Source of the DNA: a virus | Lineage: Duplodnaviria; Heunggongvirae; Uroviricota; Caudoviricetes | DNA: 5,846 nt | Strand: one strand, 5' to 3' | IMG/VR virus record: IMGVR_UViG_2534681661_000011 | Coordinates: 1 to 5,846 of that record | Shown: positions 1 through 5,846 of the stretch, piece by piece | How the letters are laid out: each line of letters starts with the position of its first letter | Position numbering within the stretch: position 1 is the first letter of the stretch | Position numbers and translations under genes: made by a program | The notes under the pieces: model-generated | The model's input: the letters and a program-made list of their open reading frames with translations, nothing else | What the model was told of the DNA's origin: nothing | The model's database searches: none

Positions 1-1
1 G

Positions 2-223
2 CTGGCGATTACCGGCTTTACTCCGAATGCCCTGCAACAGCGTGCTTCTCATTGCCTGTATACCATTGCCGAAGAACAAGCGACAAACAGTGCTTCAATC
101 TCTGCTTGTCACGCTCAGGGAATGTTAACGGATTTGCTGTTCATTGCGCTGATTCAGCAGGATCTGGAACTGGCACCAGAACGTATTCGTCATAGTGAAG
201 CGCTGGTGAAAAAACTGGTCTGA
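2..223 (+). CDS. yfhH: 3' end of a host transcriptional regulator gene (RpiR-like, SIS-domain C-terminus); partial, start lies upstream of the window
   Basis: Frame 2 is open from position 2 to a TGA at 221-223 and encodes ...LAITGFTPNALQQRASHCLYTIAEEQATNSASISACHAQGMLTDLLFIALIQQDLELAPERIRHSEALVKKLV*. Not in the ORF track because it has no in-window Met. Family and gene name are from memory: the tail resembles the C-terminus of SIS-domain regulators, and yfhH lies immediately upstream of yfhL in E. coli K-12. Not verified by search. Confidence 0.5.
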   Translation: MAITGFTPNALQQRASHCLYTIAEEQATNSASISACHAQGMLTDLLFIALIQQDLELAPERIRHSEALVKKLV

Positions 224-235
224 GTAAAGAATGCG

Positions 236-241
236 CGTATA
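236..241 (+). promoter_or_regulatory. Candidate -10 hexamer (TATAAT) of the native promoter of the downstream ferredoxin gene
   Basis: Perfect TATAAT at 236-241, about 38 nt upstream of the ATG at 279; a GAGAG Shine-Dalgarno-like motif sits 266-270. No convincing -35 element seen, so this is weak. Confidence 0.3.
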
Positions 242-278
242 ATGCCCGCCCGGTTTGTGTTGTTTTGAGAGTTTCCTT

Positions 279-335
279 ATGGCGTTGTTAATCACTAAAA
301 AATGCATCAATTGTGATATGTGTGAAATCAAATAA
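279..335 (+). pseudogene. yfhL: 5' fragment of a 4Fe-4S ferredoxin gene, truncated at the prophage junction (16 native codons, then 2 foreign codons and a stop)
   Basis: ATG at 279 encodes [16 protein letters not shown], which matches the N-terminus of E. coli YfhL as I recall it ([23 protein letters not shown]...). After codon 16 (gaa, 324-326) the sequence reads atc aaa taa instead of the expected Pro-Glu-Cys-Pro, so the gene is broken at about 326/327. Confidence 0.55.
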
Positions 336-523
336 AAACACATTTATTTTCATAGTGATACAGCAATGTGTTATTGAATGTGTTGTTGGATTTATGGTGC
401 AAAAAAATTTTGCATAAGTTCAGCAACACAAAGATCCCCCCCTTTTCTATAACGGTTCATTTGAGACTCCCCCTTGACTCCCTCTTCGAAATTGAAGACC
501 ATCACCTGTACATAATTACAGTC

Positions 524-802
524 ATGGATAATATTATGCGCAGAAAAGAGTCAAACGTTAGCAGTTTGCCGGAACTCACCAATTTTGAGGTAAGCTATTC
601 TCTGGTTACCAATGAAGTTTACTTGTCTGCATCCTTCACTGATAACATGGCCTGTATACCAAACTGGCCCTTACAAGAATTTCCGGATCAACTAATATGC
701 ATTTCTCGAGCAAAAGCTGTTGCCCTAATCGAAGAGCTCCAGAAGACCATCAACTATATGGATGCAGGAATAGTTCGAAGTTCAGGTAGCCTTCTCCAGT
801 AG
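524..802 (+). CDS. Hypothetical small protein (92 aa from the ATG at 524; alternative ATG at 536); may not be coding
   Basis: Sub-region of track ORF 368..802. The first 52 codons of that ORF run across a palindrome and poly-C tracts and look non-coding, so I start at the internal Met (MDNIMRRKESNV...). No good Shine-Dalgarno, several rare codons (aga, ata, cta, cga), no recognisable motif. Confidence 0.3.
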   Translation: MDNIMRRKESNVSSLPELTNFEVSYSLVTNEVYLSASFTDNMACIPNWPLQEFPDQLICISRAKAVALIEELQKTINYMDAGIVRSSGSLLQ

Positions 803-860
803 CTGACGAGTTTTATAATAATTTGATATATATATCGTTCAATATTAGCGAGTACTTATA

Positions 861-1508
861 ATGAGTGAATTTAGTAATCTTTTAAATAGCATACCTGGAT
901 GGTTATCCTCCTCCCTCACAGCTCTAGTTGGTACTCTTATTGGCGGATGGTTTACCCTAAAAGGAGTCACCCAACAAGCTAAGCTGTCTAAAGTAGAGAC
1001 AGAAAGAGAATCCCTTGAATTACAACTTTCAGTATTAAAAGGAGTTAAGGGAGAAGTTTTCACCCTAATCAATTTATATAATAAAAGGATGAAAACACAC
1101 ATTGATAATATAAAACCGGGACAAATGTTGATTCTCACATTCCCTGTAGGGGATGATAATTTCACATTCTATGAGCAAAATGCGAATGTCATTGCAAAAC
1201 TAAATGATTCTGCTAGAGACTCAATAATTAACATATACACATATTCACGCTCATTAATACAATCATTTAAAGGAAACAACAAACTCATTGAGGATTATGA
1301 AAAAATCCTTATTGGCATGGCAGACAATAACAAAGATAAAACCATGTATAAAAGATTACATGATGCAAAAATAAATGTAATGGTAGATTATGCTCAAGGG
1401 ATAAAAAATATTGATGCAGAGCTAAGAGATGCTGTCAATAAGGGATTCGACATTATCGACCAAGAAGTAAAGTCACTACAAATGAAATTAAACAAATTAG
1501 CTTCATAG
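861..1508 (+). CDS. Hypothetical membrane-anchored coiled-coil protein (215 aa); prophage cargo and candidate phage-exclusion or defence protein
   Basis: Clean ORF in a markedly AT-rich stretch compared with the flanking pin and tail genes (by inspection, not computed). One hydrophobic segment near the N-terminus (GWLSSSLTALVGTLIGGWFTL), then a charged Lys/Glu/Asn-rich region with heptad-like character. No catalytic motif recognised. Sits where e14 of E. coli K-12 carries mcrA. Confidence 0.7.
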   Translation: MSEFSNLLNSIPGWLSSSLTALVGTLIGGWFTLKGVTQQAKLSKVETERESLELQLSVLKGVKGEVFTLINLYNKRMKTHIDNIKPGQMLILTFPVGDDNFTFYEQNANVIAKLNDSARDSIINIYTYSRSLIQSFKGNNKLIEDYEKILIGMADNNKDKTMYKRLHDAKINVMVDYAQGIKNIDAELRDAVNKGFDIIDQEVKSLQMKLNKLAS

Positions 1509-1553
1509 AATGCTCCACTCCCTGTTCAATATTTTTACAAGCTTATCAGCCAG

Positions 1554-1586
1554 CCGTGGCACGTTCTTGCATACGACGTGCTACGG
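1554..1586. terminator. Stem-loop between the convergent cargo gene and pin; possible bidirectional terminator
   Basis: ccgtggcacg (1554-1563) pairs with cgtgctacgg (1577-1586), a 10-bp stem with one G-U wobble and a 13-nt loop, followed on the plus strand by tttcattta. Loop is long and the U-tract weak. Confidence 0.25.
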
Positions 1587-1588
1587 TT

Positions 1589-2143
1589 TCATTTATCTCC
1601 GACCGGAAACTTCTTATACAAAGTCGATACGCCAACATCATAAATGATCGCCACCTTCTGGCGAGGAACTCCTGATGCAATTAGTCGCCCGGCCTGCGCC
1701 CATTGTTCTGGTGTAAGTTTGGGACGACGTCCACCAATTCGTCCCTGTGCGCGAGCAGCTTCCAGTCCAGCTTTTGTTCGTTCAACAATCAGTTCTCGTT
1801 CCATTTCAGCCAGGGCACCCATCACATGAAAGAAAAAACGCCCCATCGGTGTGCTGGTATCAATTGAATCCGTCAGACTACGAAAGTTAATGCCTCGTTC
1901 GCGCAACCCCTCCACCAGCACGACAAGATGCCGCATACTGCGCCCCAGTCGGTCCAGCTTCCAGACAACCAGAGTGTCACCTGCCGATAATGTCCTAAGC
2001 AGTTTTTTCAGTCCCGGCCTTTCGGACTTTGTGCCGCTTATCTTGTCTTCAAAAATCAGCTCGCATCCTGCACAGTTCAGCGCATTACGTTGTAGATCTG
2101 TGTTCTGGTCATTTGTTGATACGCGTACATAGCCAATAAGCAT
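1589..2143 (-). CDS. pin: Serine-recombinase DNA invertase of the Pin/Gin/Cin/Hin family (184 aa)
   Basis: Encodes MLIGYVRVSTNDQNTDLQRNAL...GDTLVVWKLDRLGRS...MGRFFFHVMGALAEMERELIVERT...VSTLYKKFPVGDK, with the catalytic Ser in the VRVSTNDQ motif and a C-terminal HTH. I use the ATG at 2141-2143, which has an AGGGGGA Shine-Dalgarno 5-7 nt upstream, rather than the track's ATG at 2179, which adds 12 non-conserved residues. Confidence 0.95.
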   Translation of the reverse strand: MLIGYVRVSTNDQNTDLQRNALNCAGCELIFEDKISGTKSERPGLKKLLRTLSAGDTLVVWKLDRLGRSMRHLVVLVEGLRERGINFRSLTDSIDTSTPMGRFFFHVMGALAEMERELIVERTKAGLEAARAQGRIGGRRPKLTPEQWAQAGRLIASGVPRQKVAIIYDVGVSTLYKKFPVGDK

Positions 2144-2197
2144 GGTAGATCCCCCTGACAAAAGCAGGAATGATGCCATTTGCTCGTTATTTCTGCA

Positions 2198-2223
2198 TTT
2201 TCATAAACGTTGGTTTGGGAGAA
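2198..2223. other. Invertase crossover site, pin-proximal (26 bp)
   Basis: Plus strand ttttcataaacgttggtttgggagaa; its reverse complement ttctcccaaaccaacgtttatgaaaa shares the first 14 nt and the central AA with the site at 4123-4148 in inverted orientation. Matches the gix/cix/pix-type site architecture as I recall it. Confidence 0.8.
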
Positions 2224-2562
2224 GCGGCTAAAAGGAATGTAGGGACAGGGGCGAATCAGATACCTGATATGGGTAGCTTCACGCTTTCTGTTTCAGGTAC
2301 TGGATATCAAAAATTACCATCAGGTTTTATTCTTCAGTGGGGCTCAATCGGCGCACCAGGCATTGCACAGGATGTAGTAACCCATTTCCCGATTGCATTT
2401 CCAAACAGATGTCTGCGTGTTTTGGTCTCACAAGACTACACACCAGATAGCGGGGCTGTTGGTTATATTGCCTGTGCAGGTTTTAGTCCCGACCCGGTTA
2501 AATTTATATCCAGAGCCAGTACTCCTGGCCTCGGCGCTTCATTTTTAGCGTTAGGCTGTTAA
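2200..2562 (+). CDS. Silent alternative tail-fibre C-terminal segment (no start or promoter of its own); would be fused in-frame to the tail-fibre constant region after inversion
   Basis: Frame of track ORF 2170..2562. The coding part begins inside the crossover site: aac gtt ggt ttg gga gaa = NVGLGE, parallel to ENLGLGE in the expressed gene. Continues ...[29 protein letters not shown]..., which looks like a fibre tip domain. The leading MMPFARYF... of the track ORF is read-through of non-coding sequence. Confidence 0.65.
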
Positions 2563-2583
2563 TTTAGCTATATGGAGTGAAAA

Positions 2584-3024
2584 ATGAATTACATATATTC
2601 CGCGACTACAAACTCTTTCTATCCGCTGGAGATGAAAGAGGATTACACTCAAGCTGACTCATGGCCAGATGATGCTGTTGAAGTTGATGAGCAAGTGTAT
2701 ATTGAGTTTTCCGGATTACCGCCGAAAGGAAAAATCCGTATCGCTGGAGAAAATGGTTTTCCTGCATGGTCTGAAATTCCACCACCAACACATGAGGAAC
2801 AGATTGCTGCAGCCGAACTGGAAAAGCAGCAACTGATTAATCAGGCCAACGATTATATGAACAGTAAACAATGGCCTGGTAAAGCGGCTATTGGCCGGCT
2901 GAAAGGGGAGGAACTGGCGCAATATAATTTGTGGCTGGATTATCTGGACGCACTGGAACTGGTCGATACTTCCGGTGCGCCAGATATTGAATGGCCTACG
3001 CCTCCGGCAGTTCAGGCCAGATGA
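2584..3024 (+). CDS. Tail-fibre assembly protein (Tfa/U family, 146 aa), partner of the silent fibre variant
   Basis: GGAG 7 nt upstream of the ATG. C-terminus ...[27 protein letters not shown] is the conserved Tfa C-terminal motif. Lies directly downstream of the silent fibre segment inside the invertible region. Confidence 0.85.
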   Translation: MNYIYSATTNSFYPLEMKEDYTQADSWPDDAVEVDEQVYIEFSGLPPKGKIRIAGENGFPAWSEIPPPTHEEQIAAAELEKQQLINQANDYMNSKQWPGKAAIGRLKGEELAQYNLWLDYLDALELVDTSGAPDIEWPTPPAVQAR

Positions 3025-3601
3025 CATCCGGCGCGGTGCTGGTATCTGTTGCCGTCACCGCGTCAATGTAATCCAGCGCAGCGTTAAGTCGGGCGGTTTC
3101 TGCCTGCGTCAGATTCCGTCCGGCCTGCAATTTCAGCTGAATCAGACTAATGGAAGCCATTGCAGTATCAATCAGTGACTGACGCTGTGCTTCTGCCGCG
3201 CCTACTGCGGCGCTATGCTGTGCCACAGTATCTGTTACCCATTTCTCACCATCCCATTCATCGTATGGCGTTAACGGGGCGATAGTGGTTGTATTTTCAG
3301 GATAATCACCCGGAGCTGTGATTTCTTTCGATTCTCCTGTTTCGGTGCTATAGATGATTTCACCGCGATGGTCTGACACATATTCCCATGAGTTTAAATC
3401 TGCCGAACGGCAGATTGCATAACCAGCCTTATGTGTGCCAGGAGCATCTAAACAGGAATATGCAGGGATACCGACACCCACAGCAAGATATTCAGTTGAT
3501 GCAGAAATATACTCCCGTGTCTCACTGTCATAGTTATAAACGGTAATCTCTCCTGCCTTTGTGGCAATAAATTTACTATTCAAGATGGCGTTATACATCA
3601 T
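2996..3601 (-). CDS. Tail-fibre assembly protein (Tfa/U family, ~200 aa), partner of the currently expressed fibre
   Basis: Start ATG overlaps the stop of the upstream tail-fibre gene (ATGA, 3598-3601), consistent with translational coupling. C-terminus ...[30 protein letters not shown] is the conserved Tfa motif. Size and N-terminus ([11 protein letters not shown]...) resemble TfaE-type proteins from memory. Confidence 0.85.
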
Positions 3602-4473
3602 GCAGCCCTCACAATGTAATTAAATGAAATATTACGTGGGCGTGTCTCTGCTGCACCGACAATACTGGTACTCAACCCCGTCGCTGTTCGTTTGTTATTT
3701 TTATTTCCTTCAATCAGACAGTTGTAATCATCATTACCAATTAACGAATTAGTGGCATCAATACCGTCCGGGGACAAGGCATTAGTTGTAGAACTTAAAG
3801 TCAGCATCTCGTCTGAACTTGGAAGATTTTTTAATGGTATTTCATTGCGAGAAATACCCGCGTAAAAAAAGGACTCATGCCTGTGCGCTTCAAAAGAGTC
3901 ATCCTGAAGACTTAGCAAGGCACGTCCCGCATCCACACCACGCCCGTCATCCCAGCCACGAATAAACTCACCACGTAAATCAGGCAATTTATTTGTCGGA
4001 TAAGCCTTTGCCAGTTCCGGGTATTCTTCAGCAGAAAAAGCGGCACCGTTGCATTTCAGCCAGCCTGTTGGCGGAGTGGCGGAAGGCCACGGAACAGGCA
4101 CGCCAACGGGTAATGCCGAACCTTCTCCCAAACCAAGGTTTTCGAGAGCCGTTTTCACCGTGCCATCCGATTTGATATCACCAAACGGATTCTTGCGGCT
4201 CAGGTATTCAACAGCAAACCCCGATCCCAGCAATTCAACAAAACCGGGCAGATCACCATTATCAAGCACATCCCGTTGCGTTTTGTCACTTACAAACTGG
4301 GCCAGAGCTGCAGCAATAAAGCTGGCCTGCCGAATAACCTTATTGACTTGCGCACTGGATGCTTTCCCTGCTGTAAATCCGGATAAAAGCGCAGGCAACG
4401 CTTCCCATTCCTCCTGCGACATAACATTGGCATTCCGATCAGTTGCAAACGCTTTAAAGTCATTTTTCGCCAT
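3598..4473 (-). CDS. Tail-fibre protein: constant N-terminal region (outside the invertible segment) fused to variable region A
   Basis: Encodes [27 protein letters not shown]... and ends ...[15 protein letters not shown], with a tail-collar-like region ([24 protein letters not shown]). I prefer the ATG at 4471-4473 (GGAG ~10 nt upstream; TGATG overlap with the upstream gene's stop) over the track start at 4491, which has its Shine-Dalgarno too close and overlaps the upstream gene by 19 nt. The crossover site at 4123-4148 lies in-frame inside the gene (..[10 protein letters not shown]..). Confidence 0.85.
4123..4148. other. Invertase crossover site, pin-distal (26 bp), inside the tail-fibre gene at the constant/variable boundary
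   Basis: ttctcccaaaccaaggttttcgagag; inverted partner of 2198-2223 (14 of 14 identical in the inner half, same central AA). Confidence 0.8.
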
Positions 4474-5153
4474 CAGAGTAATACTCCCCATGCCCCTACA
4501 TCAAAACCACTGATGAATTCGTTATCCATATCAAAACCAAAAAATTTTGAACCTTCCGATGGAGTTTCCACCGAAGGTGTTTCAATGCCACCCGCCCAAA
4601 CCCCGGCGGCTTTTACTGTGAGATATCCCTGTTTAATTGCAGCAATTAACTCACGCGATACATCTGAAATATCAGTATCAGGAAAGAGCCAGACCGATAT
4701 CGTCATGTCCTGGTTATCGACTATCTGCATTCGCAGTCCGGATCCTGCTGTCGCCGCGTCAAGAATTGCTGGAAGCGAATCATTCCGTCCGTCCCAGTTA
4801 TTAATCGCAATCTTCGCTTTAAGGATGACACGATAAGTTTCATCGCTGAGGTACATGTATCCGGAATCAGGATCGTATGGCCCCTGCCATACACCCTGAT
4901 CATATCCAAGCCCGTCGGTATCCCAGCTGAAATAGACACCTGAGATAGGCTGGCTGACAACACGGCTACGTCCGATCCACAATCCAAGAATGTCAAGTTG
5001 CACACCAACCGCAGAGTCAATATCAAATGCAGTAATCAGCCCTCTGGTGGCAGCCGCAACATCAATAAGCGGCCGGGTCATCAGATCAACATGTGCAAGA
5101 AATTTAGGTTTGGTGGCGTGGTAGTTCGTGATCAGTTCGGTGTATTTGCTCAT
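4473..5153 (-). CDS. Phage tail/baseplate protein immediately upstream of the tail fibre (YmfQ / Mu gp48 / P2 gpI-like by position), 226 aa
   Basis: Complete ORF whose start overlaps the upstream gene's stop (ATGA at 5150-5153) and whose stop overlaps the tail-fibre start (TGATG at 4471-4475). Assignment is by gene order in Mu/e14-type tail modules; the family was not confirmed by sequence motif. Confidence 0.6.
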
Positions 5154-5452
5154 GACTCCACCGTTATAACGATATTTTCCGGTGTACAGGACGCAGATTC
5201 GTTGTATCTGATATCAATGTTTGATGACGACAAAGCCCCCGGGGATTTCCCAATCGTCAGTTCCTGAATATCGTAATAGCGTGCATTCCCGCCACTCACC
5301 ACGCCAAGATTCGCCGGTGAGTAAATGCGACTTAAAAGGACCGAATCACCAATCATCAGACTATTGATATAGTCGGAAATAGCCTGCTGGATCTGCTGCC
5401 CTATCTGTGAGGTATAACCCGTAAAAACTTTTAATTTAATCCGGGCATAAAC
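5150..5452 (-). pseudogene. 3' portion of the next upstream tail/baseplate gene (baseplate J-like by position), apparently cut off by the IS element
   Basis: Minus-strand frame ...VYARIKLKVFTGYTSQIGQQIQQAISDYINSLMIGDSVLLSRIYSPANLGVV...NIVITVES* is protein-like and coupled to the downstream gene. Only ~100 codons remain before the putative IS end at 5453; the frame stays open into the IS by chance until a stop at 5585-5587. Confidence 0.4.
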
Positions 5453-5846
5453 GTAAGCGTACAGCCTGAACCGTCTGGTCAGAATCTGACGAATTAGACA
5501 AAGTGGTGTCCACCAAATAAGTAGTGGGAACCAAAGTGTCAGATATGCAGAAAAATGTGACTCCCGGCAGGCGAAAAGGCAGCCCTAATTATCCTCCCGA
5601 ATTTAAACAGCAGCTCGTTGCTGCCTCCTGTGAACCCGGGATATCCATCTCAAAACTTGCTCTTGAAAATGGCATTAACGCCAATCTGTTGTTCAAATGG
5701 CGACAACAATGGCGCGAGGGAAAGCTGCTATTACCTTCTTCAGAGAGCCCCCAGCTACTTCCTGTGACTCTCGATGCAGCTGCCGAACAGCCAGAATCGC
5801 TCGCAGAGGACCCGAAAACCCTCAGTATCAGCTGTGAGGTAACGTT
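5453..5846 (+). mobile_element. Left end of an insertion sequence, probably IS66 family; continues beyond the window
   Basis: GTAAGCG at 5453-5459 matches the characteristic IS66-family terminus as I recall it, about 90 bp upstream of an HTH accessory gene. The exact boundary is uncertain without the other end. Confidence 0.5.
5545..5846 (+). CDS. IS-encoded HTH accessory/transposase protein (TnpA/OrfA-like), N-terminal part; open to the end of the window
   Basis: Encodes MQKNVTPGRRKGSPNYPPEFKQQLVAASCEPGISISKLALENGINANLLFKWRQQWREGKL..., the typical RR..S.EFK...V....G.S.........LL.KWR helix-turn-helix signature of IS3/IS66-type first ORFs. No stop within 100 codons. Confidence 0.6.
   Translation, partial: MQKNVTPGRRKGSPNYPPEFKQQLVAASCEPGISISKLALENGINANLLFKWRQQWREGKLLLPSSESPQLLPVTLDAAAEQPESLAEDPKTLSISCEVT

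Follow-up and report, generated by a model that had tools for sequence, protein, structure and literature searches.

A large, undescribed family of AT-rich membrane-protein genes in enterobacterial mobile elements and a candidate anti-phage moron of an Escherichia coli yfhL prophage

Our findings point to a large family of small membrane proteins, undescribed in every library that we searched, one member of which is encoded at positions 861..1508 (plus strand) of the DNA analyzed here, a stretch of 5,846 nucleotides (nt), hereafter the window, that comprises positions 1 to 5,846 of the IMG/VR virus record IMGVR_UViG_2534681661_000011 (Caudoviricetes). Judged from sequence, this open reading frame (ORF) of 215 amino acids (aa) is a real gene, held under purifying selection and accompanied by 216 homologues across Enterobacterales, and it sits as cargo at one end of a prophage integrated in the Escherichia coli gene yfhL. 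That it serves an anti-phage role of some kind is a proposition we consider evenly balanced, given its genomic associations and predicted structure; the more specific proposal, of a moron that works at the inner membrane to exclude phages or to abort their infection, comes from association only, and we place it somewhat short of even. A prophage accessory gene in a hotspot is of a well-known kind, and what is new here is the protein family itself.

A conserved gene and its protein family

The sequence-only reading of the window had proposed an uncharacterized 215-aa ORF with a base composition sharply unlike that of the adjacent phage genes, and both parts of that proposal hold. The ORF starts with ATG and is annotated in E. 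coli ETEC-2264 as the RefSeq hypothetical protein WP_001288820.1, and 80 of 5,426 complete E. coli genomes carry it as a full-length, single chromosomal copy with 95-100% identity. Shorter E. coli variants of 139-142 aa were considered as decayed copies and rejected, as they represent old start-codon calls and 80/80 genomic copies are full length. E. coli alleles compared with one another have a ratio of nonsynonymous to synonymous substitution rates (dN/dS) of 0.04-0.06, and comparisons between genera give 0.12-0.28, indicating purifying selection. The G+C content (GC) of the ORF is 33.2% (28.7% at third codon positions, GC3), compared with 50.1% in the neighboring invertase gene and 47.3% in the tail module, which is the contrast with flanking phage genes (33.2% against 47-50%) by which morons are recognized. 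Genes of the family have a GC of 30-41% in hosts of 37-59% GC, those of the close family staying at 32-36% while their hosts range over 39-59%, and this constancy whatever the host, together with the occurrence of relatives in unrelated mobile elements, supports the separate horizontal acquisition that had been suggested from composition.

A word-indexed search recovered the 216 homologues, which are 215-223 aa long, share 62-75% identity and are all annotated as hypothetical, in genera that include Dickeya, Salmonella, Enterobacter, Yersinia, Citrobacter, Klebsiella, Serratia, Providencia, Morganella, Proteus and Pantoea. A profile search of 1.84 billion cluster representatives (clusters at 50% identity) returned 663 proteins at E<=1e-3, 254 of them at E<=1e-10, and nearly all of these are 185-230 aa long and match end to end. 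The distant branch is made up in its majority of metagenome proteins, with named members from Methylophaga, a deltaproteobacterium and Candidatus Dadabacteria; a second homologue search mostly recovered the close relatives again. The close family is marked by two invariant, non-heptad motifs, FPxGDDNFxFYEQNA and RDSIINIYTY.RSLIQSFKGNN, and across 78 divergent members the residues G29, E65, Y73, F101, N107, I122, Y126, N139, N140 and Y177 are near-invariant.

The 215-aa protein has no meaningful match in Pfam (E<=0.1) or NCBIfam, and in PHROGs only weak matches to unannotated families (E 0.09-0.33). A match to a structural, lysis or housekeeping family, which would have spoken against a defence role, was looked for in the profile libraries, and none was found. 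SieB, Imm_superinfect and similar Pfam families match neither the protein at E<=0.1 nor, in any consistent manner, the 78 divergent members, among which LapA_dom was matched by 6/78, probably through the transmembrane segment only, and phrog_33426 by 4/78. Comparison of the family profile with Protein Data Bank (PDB) sequences gave nothing under E 0.019, and Foldseek against BFVD gave nothing under E 0.039. A literature search for the accession of the protein returned no paper, and papers on defence hotspots (including PMC9122126, PMC9519451 and PMC13586616) describe no similar protein.

The single N-terminal transmembrane (TM) segment that had been read from the sequence is confirmed by hydropathy, the hydrophobic stretch spanning approximately residues 10-33 (codons at 888..959, plus strand) with a Kyte-Doolittle value of about 1.2-1.35 in the E. 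coli protein and a family mean of 1.84, and no second hydrophobic segment was found in 384 full-length members. One face of this helix carries small residues in small-xxx-small spacing (S17, A21, G24, A25, G28 and G29); in the close family A21, G24, G28 and G29 are invariant and A25 is present in at least 90%, but the protein of the window itself has T25. The pattern is typical of helix-helix association in membranes, and suggests that the helices may associate in this way. The long coiled-coil-like region that was expected to follow the TM segment, by contrast, has to be given up in favor of a folded domain: AlphaFold2 with a deep alignment confidently predicts (predicted local distance difference test, pLDDT, 96; predicted template modeling score, pTM, 0.82) a compact antiparallel helical bundle, and the invariant motifs are non-heptad. 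In the model, one helix (13-82) comprises the TM segment and the first bundle helix, two others (116-154 and 160-214) pack back along the first, and the conserved loop that follows the first helix (83-115) contains two short helices. A layer of invariant Tyr, Asn and Glu residues runs through the bundle, and the invariant loop motif FPVGDDNFTFYEQNA (codons 94-108; 1140..1184, plus strand), seen in two family alignments, is predicted to lie at its membrane-distal end, where the models place a loop over residues 83-101.

Lysine and arginine in the 15 residues flanking the hydrophobic segment average 0.16 before it and 3.5 after it over the 384 full-length members, the C-terminal side being the richer in 98.7%, and because of this charge distribution the family is predicted to be oriented N-out/C-in, with the conserved bundle in the cytoplasm. 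A few longer members start with a sequence like a signal peptide and have 40-90 additional residues ahead of the TM segment. The predicted orientation bears directly on the possibility of a function in lysis or in the virion, with the protein being a tail accessory or resembling an i-spanin or holin. The N-terminal TM segment followed by long helices is superficially like an i-spanin, and tail genes do adjoin the ORF in the window. However, an i-spanin is N-in/C-out with a periplasmic coiled coil and is encoded in a lysis cassette, the opposite of the topology predicted here, and the prophage has its own holin and lysozyme cassette ~24 kb away. Moreover, homologues lie in integrative and conjugative elements (ICEs), islets and satellites, away from lysis or tail genes, the PHROGs matches that might be read as structural are weak (E 0.09-0.33), and the gene is replaceable by other content between otherwise similar prophages. 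A spanin, holin or structural role is effectively excluded by predicted topology and context, and we regard this explanation as extremely improbable.

Mobility, genomic neighborhoods and proposed function

A 5' flank of ~200 bp and a 3' flank of ~35 bp are common to homologues in a Dickeya ICE, an Enterobacter islet, a Morganella prophage and two P2-like proviruses. Within the common 5' flank are a TATAAT/TATAGT element and a perfect 10-bp palindrome, AAGTTAACTT, ~75 nt ahead of the start codon. In each of 12 loci, those of the more divergent Klebsiella copies among them, this palindrome occurs exactly once and at that position, and it could be an operator. The palindrome or variants of it with one to three bases changed stand ~70-80 nt upstream, just 5' of the TATAAT/TATAGT element, and are kept where the flank has otherwise diverged. 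To judge from these flanks, the close relatives travel as a promoter-plus-gene cassette into the accessory slots of many elements. In Providencia, ~110 bp of the common 5' region are gone and the gene directly adjoins the repressor operon. Neither common flank accompanies the E. coli copy in the window, its first codons also differ, and the palindrome is absent from the window. This copy begins 58 bp downstream of an 88-aa ORF, and the spacer holds a lone TATAAT hexamer (814..819, plus strand), a possible -10 element of the gene, with a weak -35; a consensus scan called no full promoter. Downstream, between the convergent 215-aa ORF and pinE, lies a hairpin with a 14-bp stem followed by UUUCAUUUAU, a U-rich tract (1552..1588, plus strand; RNA fold free energy -22.5 kcal/mol, z -2.5), a terminator-like element that would end the plus-strand transcript.

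The loci in which these cassettes and their relatives reside are varied, and defence genes recur among their neighbors. In Dickeya, the gene is cargo of the ICE, between CcdAB and IS110/type IV secretion system (T4SS) genes, and in Enterobacter it lies in a small islet next to HigBA, with panE on one side and the bud operon on the other. The Morganella copy follows gpJ where a lambdoid prophage ends, with umuDC next to it and, 4 kb away, a SIR2 gene that matches PDC-S25 (E 1e-133), and in Klebsiella two lineages of capsid-encoding satellite-like elements carry the gene adjoining the integrase, one of them with PD-T7-4 (E 3e-96) just past the integrase. One P2-like provirus (IMG/VR) has it between gpR/gpS and the gpV spike. 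In the second, the order is gpA, a 93-aa ORF, the homologue (71% identity), a PifA-like KAP NTPase (PADLOC E 1.7e-65), portal and terminase, and this interval of P2 between gpA and portal is the old/tin defence hotspot that the experiments of Rousset et al. 2022 (PMC9122126) and of Vassallo et al. 2022 (PMC9519451) have defined. Further proviruses hold the gene beside SRAP and umuC-like genes, or beside gpV. Members of ~31% identity are found on 107-122-kb non-mobilizable plasmids of Enterobacter, Citrobacter and Salmonella, and, among the distant members, that of Methylophaga is immediately before an Argonaute-associated nuclease (Aga_Nuclease) and another is 2 kb after a Drt6/Drt4 reverse transcriptase. 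Adding the AbiTii gene that lies a few kb off in one Providencia locus, co-location with PifA-like, PDC-S25, PD-T7-4, Drt6/Drt4, Aga_Nuclease and AbiTii genes or with the P2 gpA-portal hotspot is recurrent in the hand-inspected loci.

Some of these loci have features of their own. The Klebsiella satellite homologue (56% identity) is present in 623 index blocks of the contig collection and is followed, 36 bp downstream, by a gene of 140-142 aa (locus 8702-9130) with no Pfam match, which may be a lineage-specific partner. The plasmid set consists of Salmonella pN16S089-2 and 28 others, with one Escherichia and one Pseudomonas record among them; pN16S089-2 is an IncFIB replicon with phage-type genes (a Rha regulator and a phage N6-adenine methyltransferase), and looks like a phage-plasmid.

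We favor an anti-phage role because the gene is an AT-rich cassette with a membrane anchor that resides in exclusion-gene slots among defence and toxin-antitoxin neighbors, and because published hit rates at such loci are high, 6/8 randomly picked unknown genes at P4 defence loci (PMC13586616) and 3/8 additional systems at the P2 hotspot (PMC9122126) having proved protective. Within an anti-phage role, an abortive mechanism is favored because the conserved domain is predicted to be cytoplasmic and is sensor-like, leaving the TM helix as the sole plausible effector; taken on its own, the abortive membrane mechanism is a doubtful proposition. In such a mechanism, the gene would act as a self-contained accessory moron. 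Its product would cross the inner membrane once, having a short N-terminus outside and the sensor-like bundle in the cytoplasm, and would work from the cytoplasmic side of that membrane to guard the lysogen, and hence the prophage, against other phages. The bundle would sense an infection cue, the proteins would associate through the glycine/alanine face of their TM helices, and the membrane would be compromised before the invading phage finishes its cycle. Anti-phage activity, trigger, oligomerization and membrane permeabilization are candidate features that we only infer. For the family as a whole, we tentatively suggest, as a possible generalization, a stand-alone single-gene immune system in which a cytoplasmic four-helix-bundle sensor is joined to a glycine-zipper TM effector and the promoter-gene cassette is shuttled between prophages, satellites, ICEs and phage-plasmids.

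The Providencia homologue brings in the alternative of non-lethal superinfection exclusion, in which a membrane-tethered protein blocks an early step, such as genome translocation across the inner membrane or the use of an entry factor in that membrane, and spares the cell. P22 SieA, T4 Imm, HK97 gp15 and lactococcal Sie2009 are non-lethal exclusion proteins of this kind. The Providencia copy, which belongs to a lambdoid prophage, comes straight after a gene for a cI-like repressor and one with an HSDR_N domain, so that it follows the repressor operon in the lysogeny/immunity region, a classical location of superinfection-exclusion (Sie) genes; a small, tightly conserved single-pass membrane protein with no enzymatic domain would suit such a function, and the context evidence is the same as that for the abortive reading. 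On the other hand, prediction puts the conserved domain of 98.7% of members in the cytoplasm, injection blockers usually acting in the membrane or periplasm, and SieB and Imm-type families gave no match in Pfam. ICEs, islets and prophage-free chromosomes carry the gene too, and these are places where excluding the relatives of a resident phage makes less sense, and we consider non-lethal exclusion improbable. The 385-aa HSDR_N protein that stands between the repressor and the homologue in Providencia (locus 6715-7872) has no PADLOC match and is itself a possible exclusion gene in a rexAB-like position.

The main rival to an anti-phage function is a non-immune accessory role, in which the protein would be a membrane-anchored regulator or fitness factor acting in envelope or stress physiology, in control of prophage induction, or in maintenance of the element or addiction to it, to the benefit of the host or of the element. 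Residence in accessory slots may only reflect where mobile elements tolerate cargo, and among the neighbors listed above are not only immune genes but genes for the response to DNA damage (umuDC-like and SRAP) and toxin-antitoxin pairs. The predicted bundle is a sensor-type fold like those of chemoreceptors and sensor kinases, selection on the gene is strongly purifying, one member has a housekeeping context, there is neither a defence family match nor an effector domain, and an O-antigen acyltransferase occupies the same slot in Salmonella phage SEN34. Set against these points, the protein has no output domain and no conserved partner gene, the 88-aa ORF of E. coli and the 140-aa gene of Klebsiella each being lineage-specific, and co-location with PifA-like, PDC-S25, PD-T7-4, Drt and Argonaute-nuclease genes is repeated. 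We judge a non-immune role unlikely, though it deserves to be taken seriously. Prophage and satellite hotspots hold counter-defence genes too, and a factor for counter-defence or competition between elements, for example an inhibitor of a membrane-associated defence complex of the host or of a rival element, would agree with the presence of the gene on ICEs, satellites and phage-plasmid-like replicons. Nothing specific favors that explanation, however, and the gene is also found in chromosomal islets with no element to protect, making it very improbable.

We acknowledge that several observations weigh against the anti-phage reading. The protein matches 0 families among 5,027 PADLOC models (PADLOC-DB v2.0.0, E<=1), and over the 78 family members PADLOC gave scattered matches only, each in 1 or 2 members, which look like chance. 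The protein contains no recognizable effector domain, and one TM helix of moderate hydrophobicity would account poorly for a pore. The tight sequence conservation (dN/dS 0.04-0.28) gives no sign of the diversifying selection seen in some immune sensors. The context census amounts to about 16 hand-inspected independent loci and is not a statistical enrichment test, one distant member lies between clpB and pyrF with neither mobile nor defence neighbors, and morons unrelated to defence, such as the SEN34 acyltransferase, also occupy accessory slots. The E. coli copy is without the ancestral 5' promoter region, and tblastn over 50,697 deposited phage genomes found no copy of the gene. The 215-aa gene is, in sum, a well-supported and cheap-to-test candidate, one of many and with no distinctive biochemical lead.

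The yfhL prophage and its cargo slot

The 215-aa ORF was described in the sequence-only reading as lying in a variable cargo slot between the Pin invertase and the host junction of an e14-type prophage, the position that holds mcrA in E. coli K-12. The slot itself is well borne out. The ORF lies between pinE (1589..2143, minus strand) and the host junction at 326/327, and the K-12 e14 layout is icd' - mcrA - pinE - tail fibre, so that mcrA does occupy the equivalent place. At least 80% of window 1-560, which covers the host flank, junction and prophage end, is represented in 145 genomes, and among complete E. coli genomes the slot holds the 215-aa gene in 80 and another, unrelated gene of 281 aa in 44. 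This alternative cargo (WP_001039127, hypothetical, 37% GC; locus 2273-3118 in E. coli Nord1 and 3133-3978 in vB_EcoM-611R5) also fills the slot of the deposited phage vB_EcoM-611R5, has no match in Pfam or PADLOC, and is a second uncharacterized candidate at the yfhL-prophage slot. In Salmonella phage SEN34, a small ORF and the O-antigen acyltransferase stand there, after the 88-aa ORF. The slot is thus variable in its occupant, with the 215-aa gene, the 281-aa gene, the SEN34 acyltransferase and the mcrA of e14 as its known contents.

The slot had also been said to hold a single ORF, and this needs correcting, as a conserved 88-aa phage ORF (536..802, plus strand; phrog_17793, E 4.7e-43) is present there as well. 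Its relatives share 94.6% aa identity in Escherichia phages vB_EcoM-611R5/683R1/606R2 and 81% in SEN34; it is unannotated in ETEC-2264 and annotated as WP_001253101/WP_001253100 in other genomes. Because it is kept in place while the next gene changes, we take it as phage backbone and not as cargo, and it is always found just inside the attachment (att) end, upstream of whichever cargo. An obligate partnership with the 215-aa gene, as a two-gene system or toxin-antitoxin pair, was considered and rejected, since the 88-aa ORF occurs with other cargo and is absent beside the homologues in other genera. Several IMG/VR proviruses retain no more of pin than a C-terminal remnant of 28-45 residues, which stands between the pair formed by the 88-aa ORF and the 215-aa gene and a different tail-fibre module. 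In them, this pair has apparently been passed on along with the pin 3' end, the remainder of pin having been lost.

The assignment of the element to the e14 type stands for one module only. The e14-like part is limited to pin and the tail-fibre end, pinE having about 94% nt identity to that of K-12. The element as a whole, in ETEC-2264, is ~41.5 kb long and integrated in yfhL, with genes for head, tail, terminase, holin/lysozyme, Q antiterminator, VapE primase, LexA-like repressor and a DNA polymerase module, and with a tyrosine integrase at its far end, whereas e14 is a defective remnant of ~15 kb integrated in icd. It is a complete-looking prophage in yfhL and therefore not e14. In E. coli XH993, the prophage is heavily decayed, with pin a pseudogene, tail-fibre and baseplate genes missing and the DNA circularization gene truncated, and the 88-aa ORF and 215-aa gene are intact.

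All 5,426 complete E. coli genomes match the host flank, and the prophage-free ones align to window 1-326 only, a region annotated yfhH / yfhL, which places the host/prophage junction at 326/327, inside yfhL, as the end of the att core. The host genes at this end are the 3' end of yfhH (1..223, plus strand; a MurR/RpiR regulator, from the RefSeq annotation of the 99.9% identical ETEC-2264 region) and a 5' stub of yfhL of about 16-18 codons (280..335, plus strand; host homology to 326). At the other prophage end, beside the integrase, an intact 86-aa yfhL (a 4Fe-4S ferredoxin) is reconstituted (ETEC-2264 locus 29445-29705). The ETEC-2264 record matches window 1-560 at two places, in agreement with a duplication of the att core. 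The match with the ETEC-2264 chromosome, at 99.9% identity, extends over window 1-5452. The remaining ~390 bases (5453-5846), which fall inside the baseplate J gene, were unaligned in megablast, the alignments of all 15 genomes among the matches listed ending at 5452, which suggests a mosaic joint or that the window derives from another strain.

Beyond the cargo, pinE encodes a serine invertase (Resolvase and HTH_7 domains; Pfam E 6.5e-51, in agreement with the RefSeq annotation), and next to it lies a Pin-invertible tail-fibre segment of 1.9 kb (2205..4141, without assigned strand) bounded by 20-nt inverted repeats at 2205-2224 and 4122-4141 that are 95% complementary. The segment holds alternative fibre C-termini and two convergent tail-fibre assembly genes (Pfam Gp53-like_C, Caudo_TAP x2, Collar), and the fibre form assembled in the window is a 297-aa fibre gene (3598..4491, minus strand). 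DUF2612 and baseplate genes (Pfam) follow the tail-fibre segment. Rfam and tRNA scans of the window gave no match.

Significance and comparison with known systems

Should the gene exclude phages, it would be a widespread and very compact single-gene addition to the prophage-borne immunity of Enterobacterales, with a spread that covers enterotoxigenic (ETEC), enteropathogenic (EPEC) and Shiga toxin-producing (STEC) E. coli lineages (H10407, O55:H7 CB9615, O103:H2 12009) as well as common Klebsiella satellites. The Pin-proximal end of e14-like tail modules would then be a defence hotspot comparable to those of P2 and P4, with a bearing on host-range prediction in phage therapy, and the combination of one TM helix and a cytoplasmic bundle would offer a tractable model of how a membrane-tethered sensor turns infection into membrane failure. 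In the event that no phage phenotype exists, this would still be a large, conserved and unannotated family deserving domain definition.

Among known proteins, the predicted bundle resembles four-helix-bundle sensors (4HB_MCP of Tsr/Tar/PcaY/McpS, the TorS sensor, and DUF3829), with 4-11% identity and no sequence-profile match, and because up-down helical bundles are a very common fold this resemblance shows no homology. Proteins of the 4HB_MCP type are recognized by the Pfam profile and carry the bundle in the periplasm between two TM helices, followed by a signaling output; the 215-aa protein lacks the profile match, and its bundle is predicted to be cytoplasmic with nothing after it. With the known Sie and abortive-infection (Abi) proteins (P22 SieA/SieB, lambda RexB, lactococcal Sie2009 and HK97 gp15), it has in common that it is a small prophage moron predicted to lie in the inner membrane, located after the repressor in one lineage; it differs in having no Pfam or PADLOC match and in combining, by prediction, a single TM helix with a large folded cytoplasmic domain. 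The exclusion genes of the P2 hotspot (old, tin and the systems of Rousset 2022/Vassallo 2022) are without homology to the 215-aa protein (PADLOC negative), yet a relative of 71% identity resides in that very hotspot beside a PifA-like gene. The closest parallel in position is mcrA of K-12 e14. McrA is a cytoplasmic HNH nuclease with no sequence or fold relation to the membrane-anchored bundle predicted here, the two genes are in opposite orientation, and the prophage described here is complete-looking and in yfhL, not icd. However, the slot is the same for both genes when located by pinE (94% identical) and by the e14-like invertible tail-fibre module, and both are AT-rich compared with their neighbors, mcrA having 38% GC and the 215-aa gene 33%.

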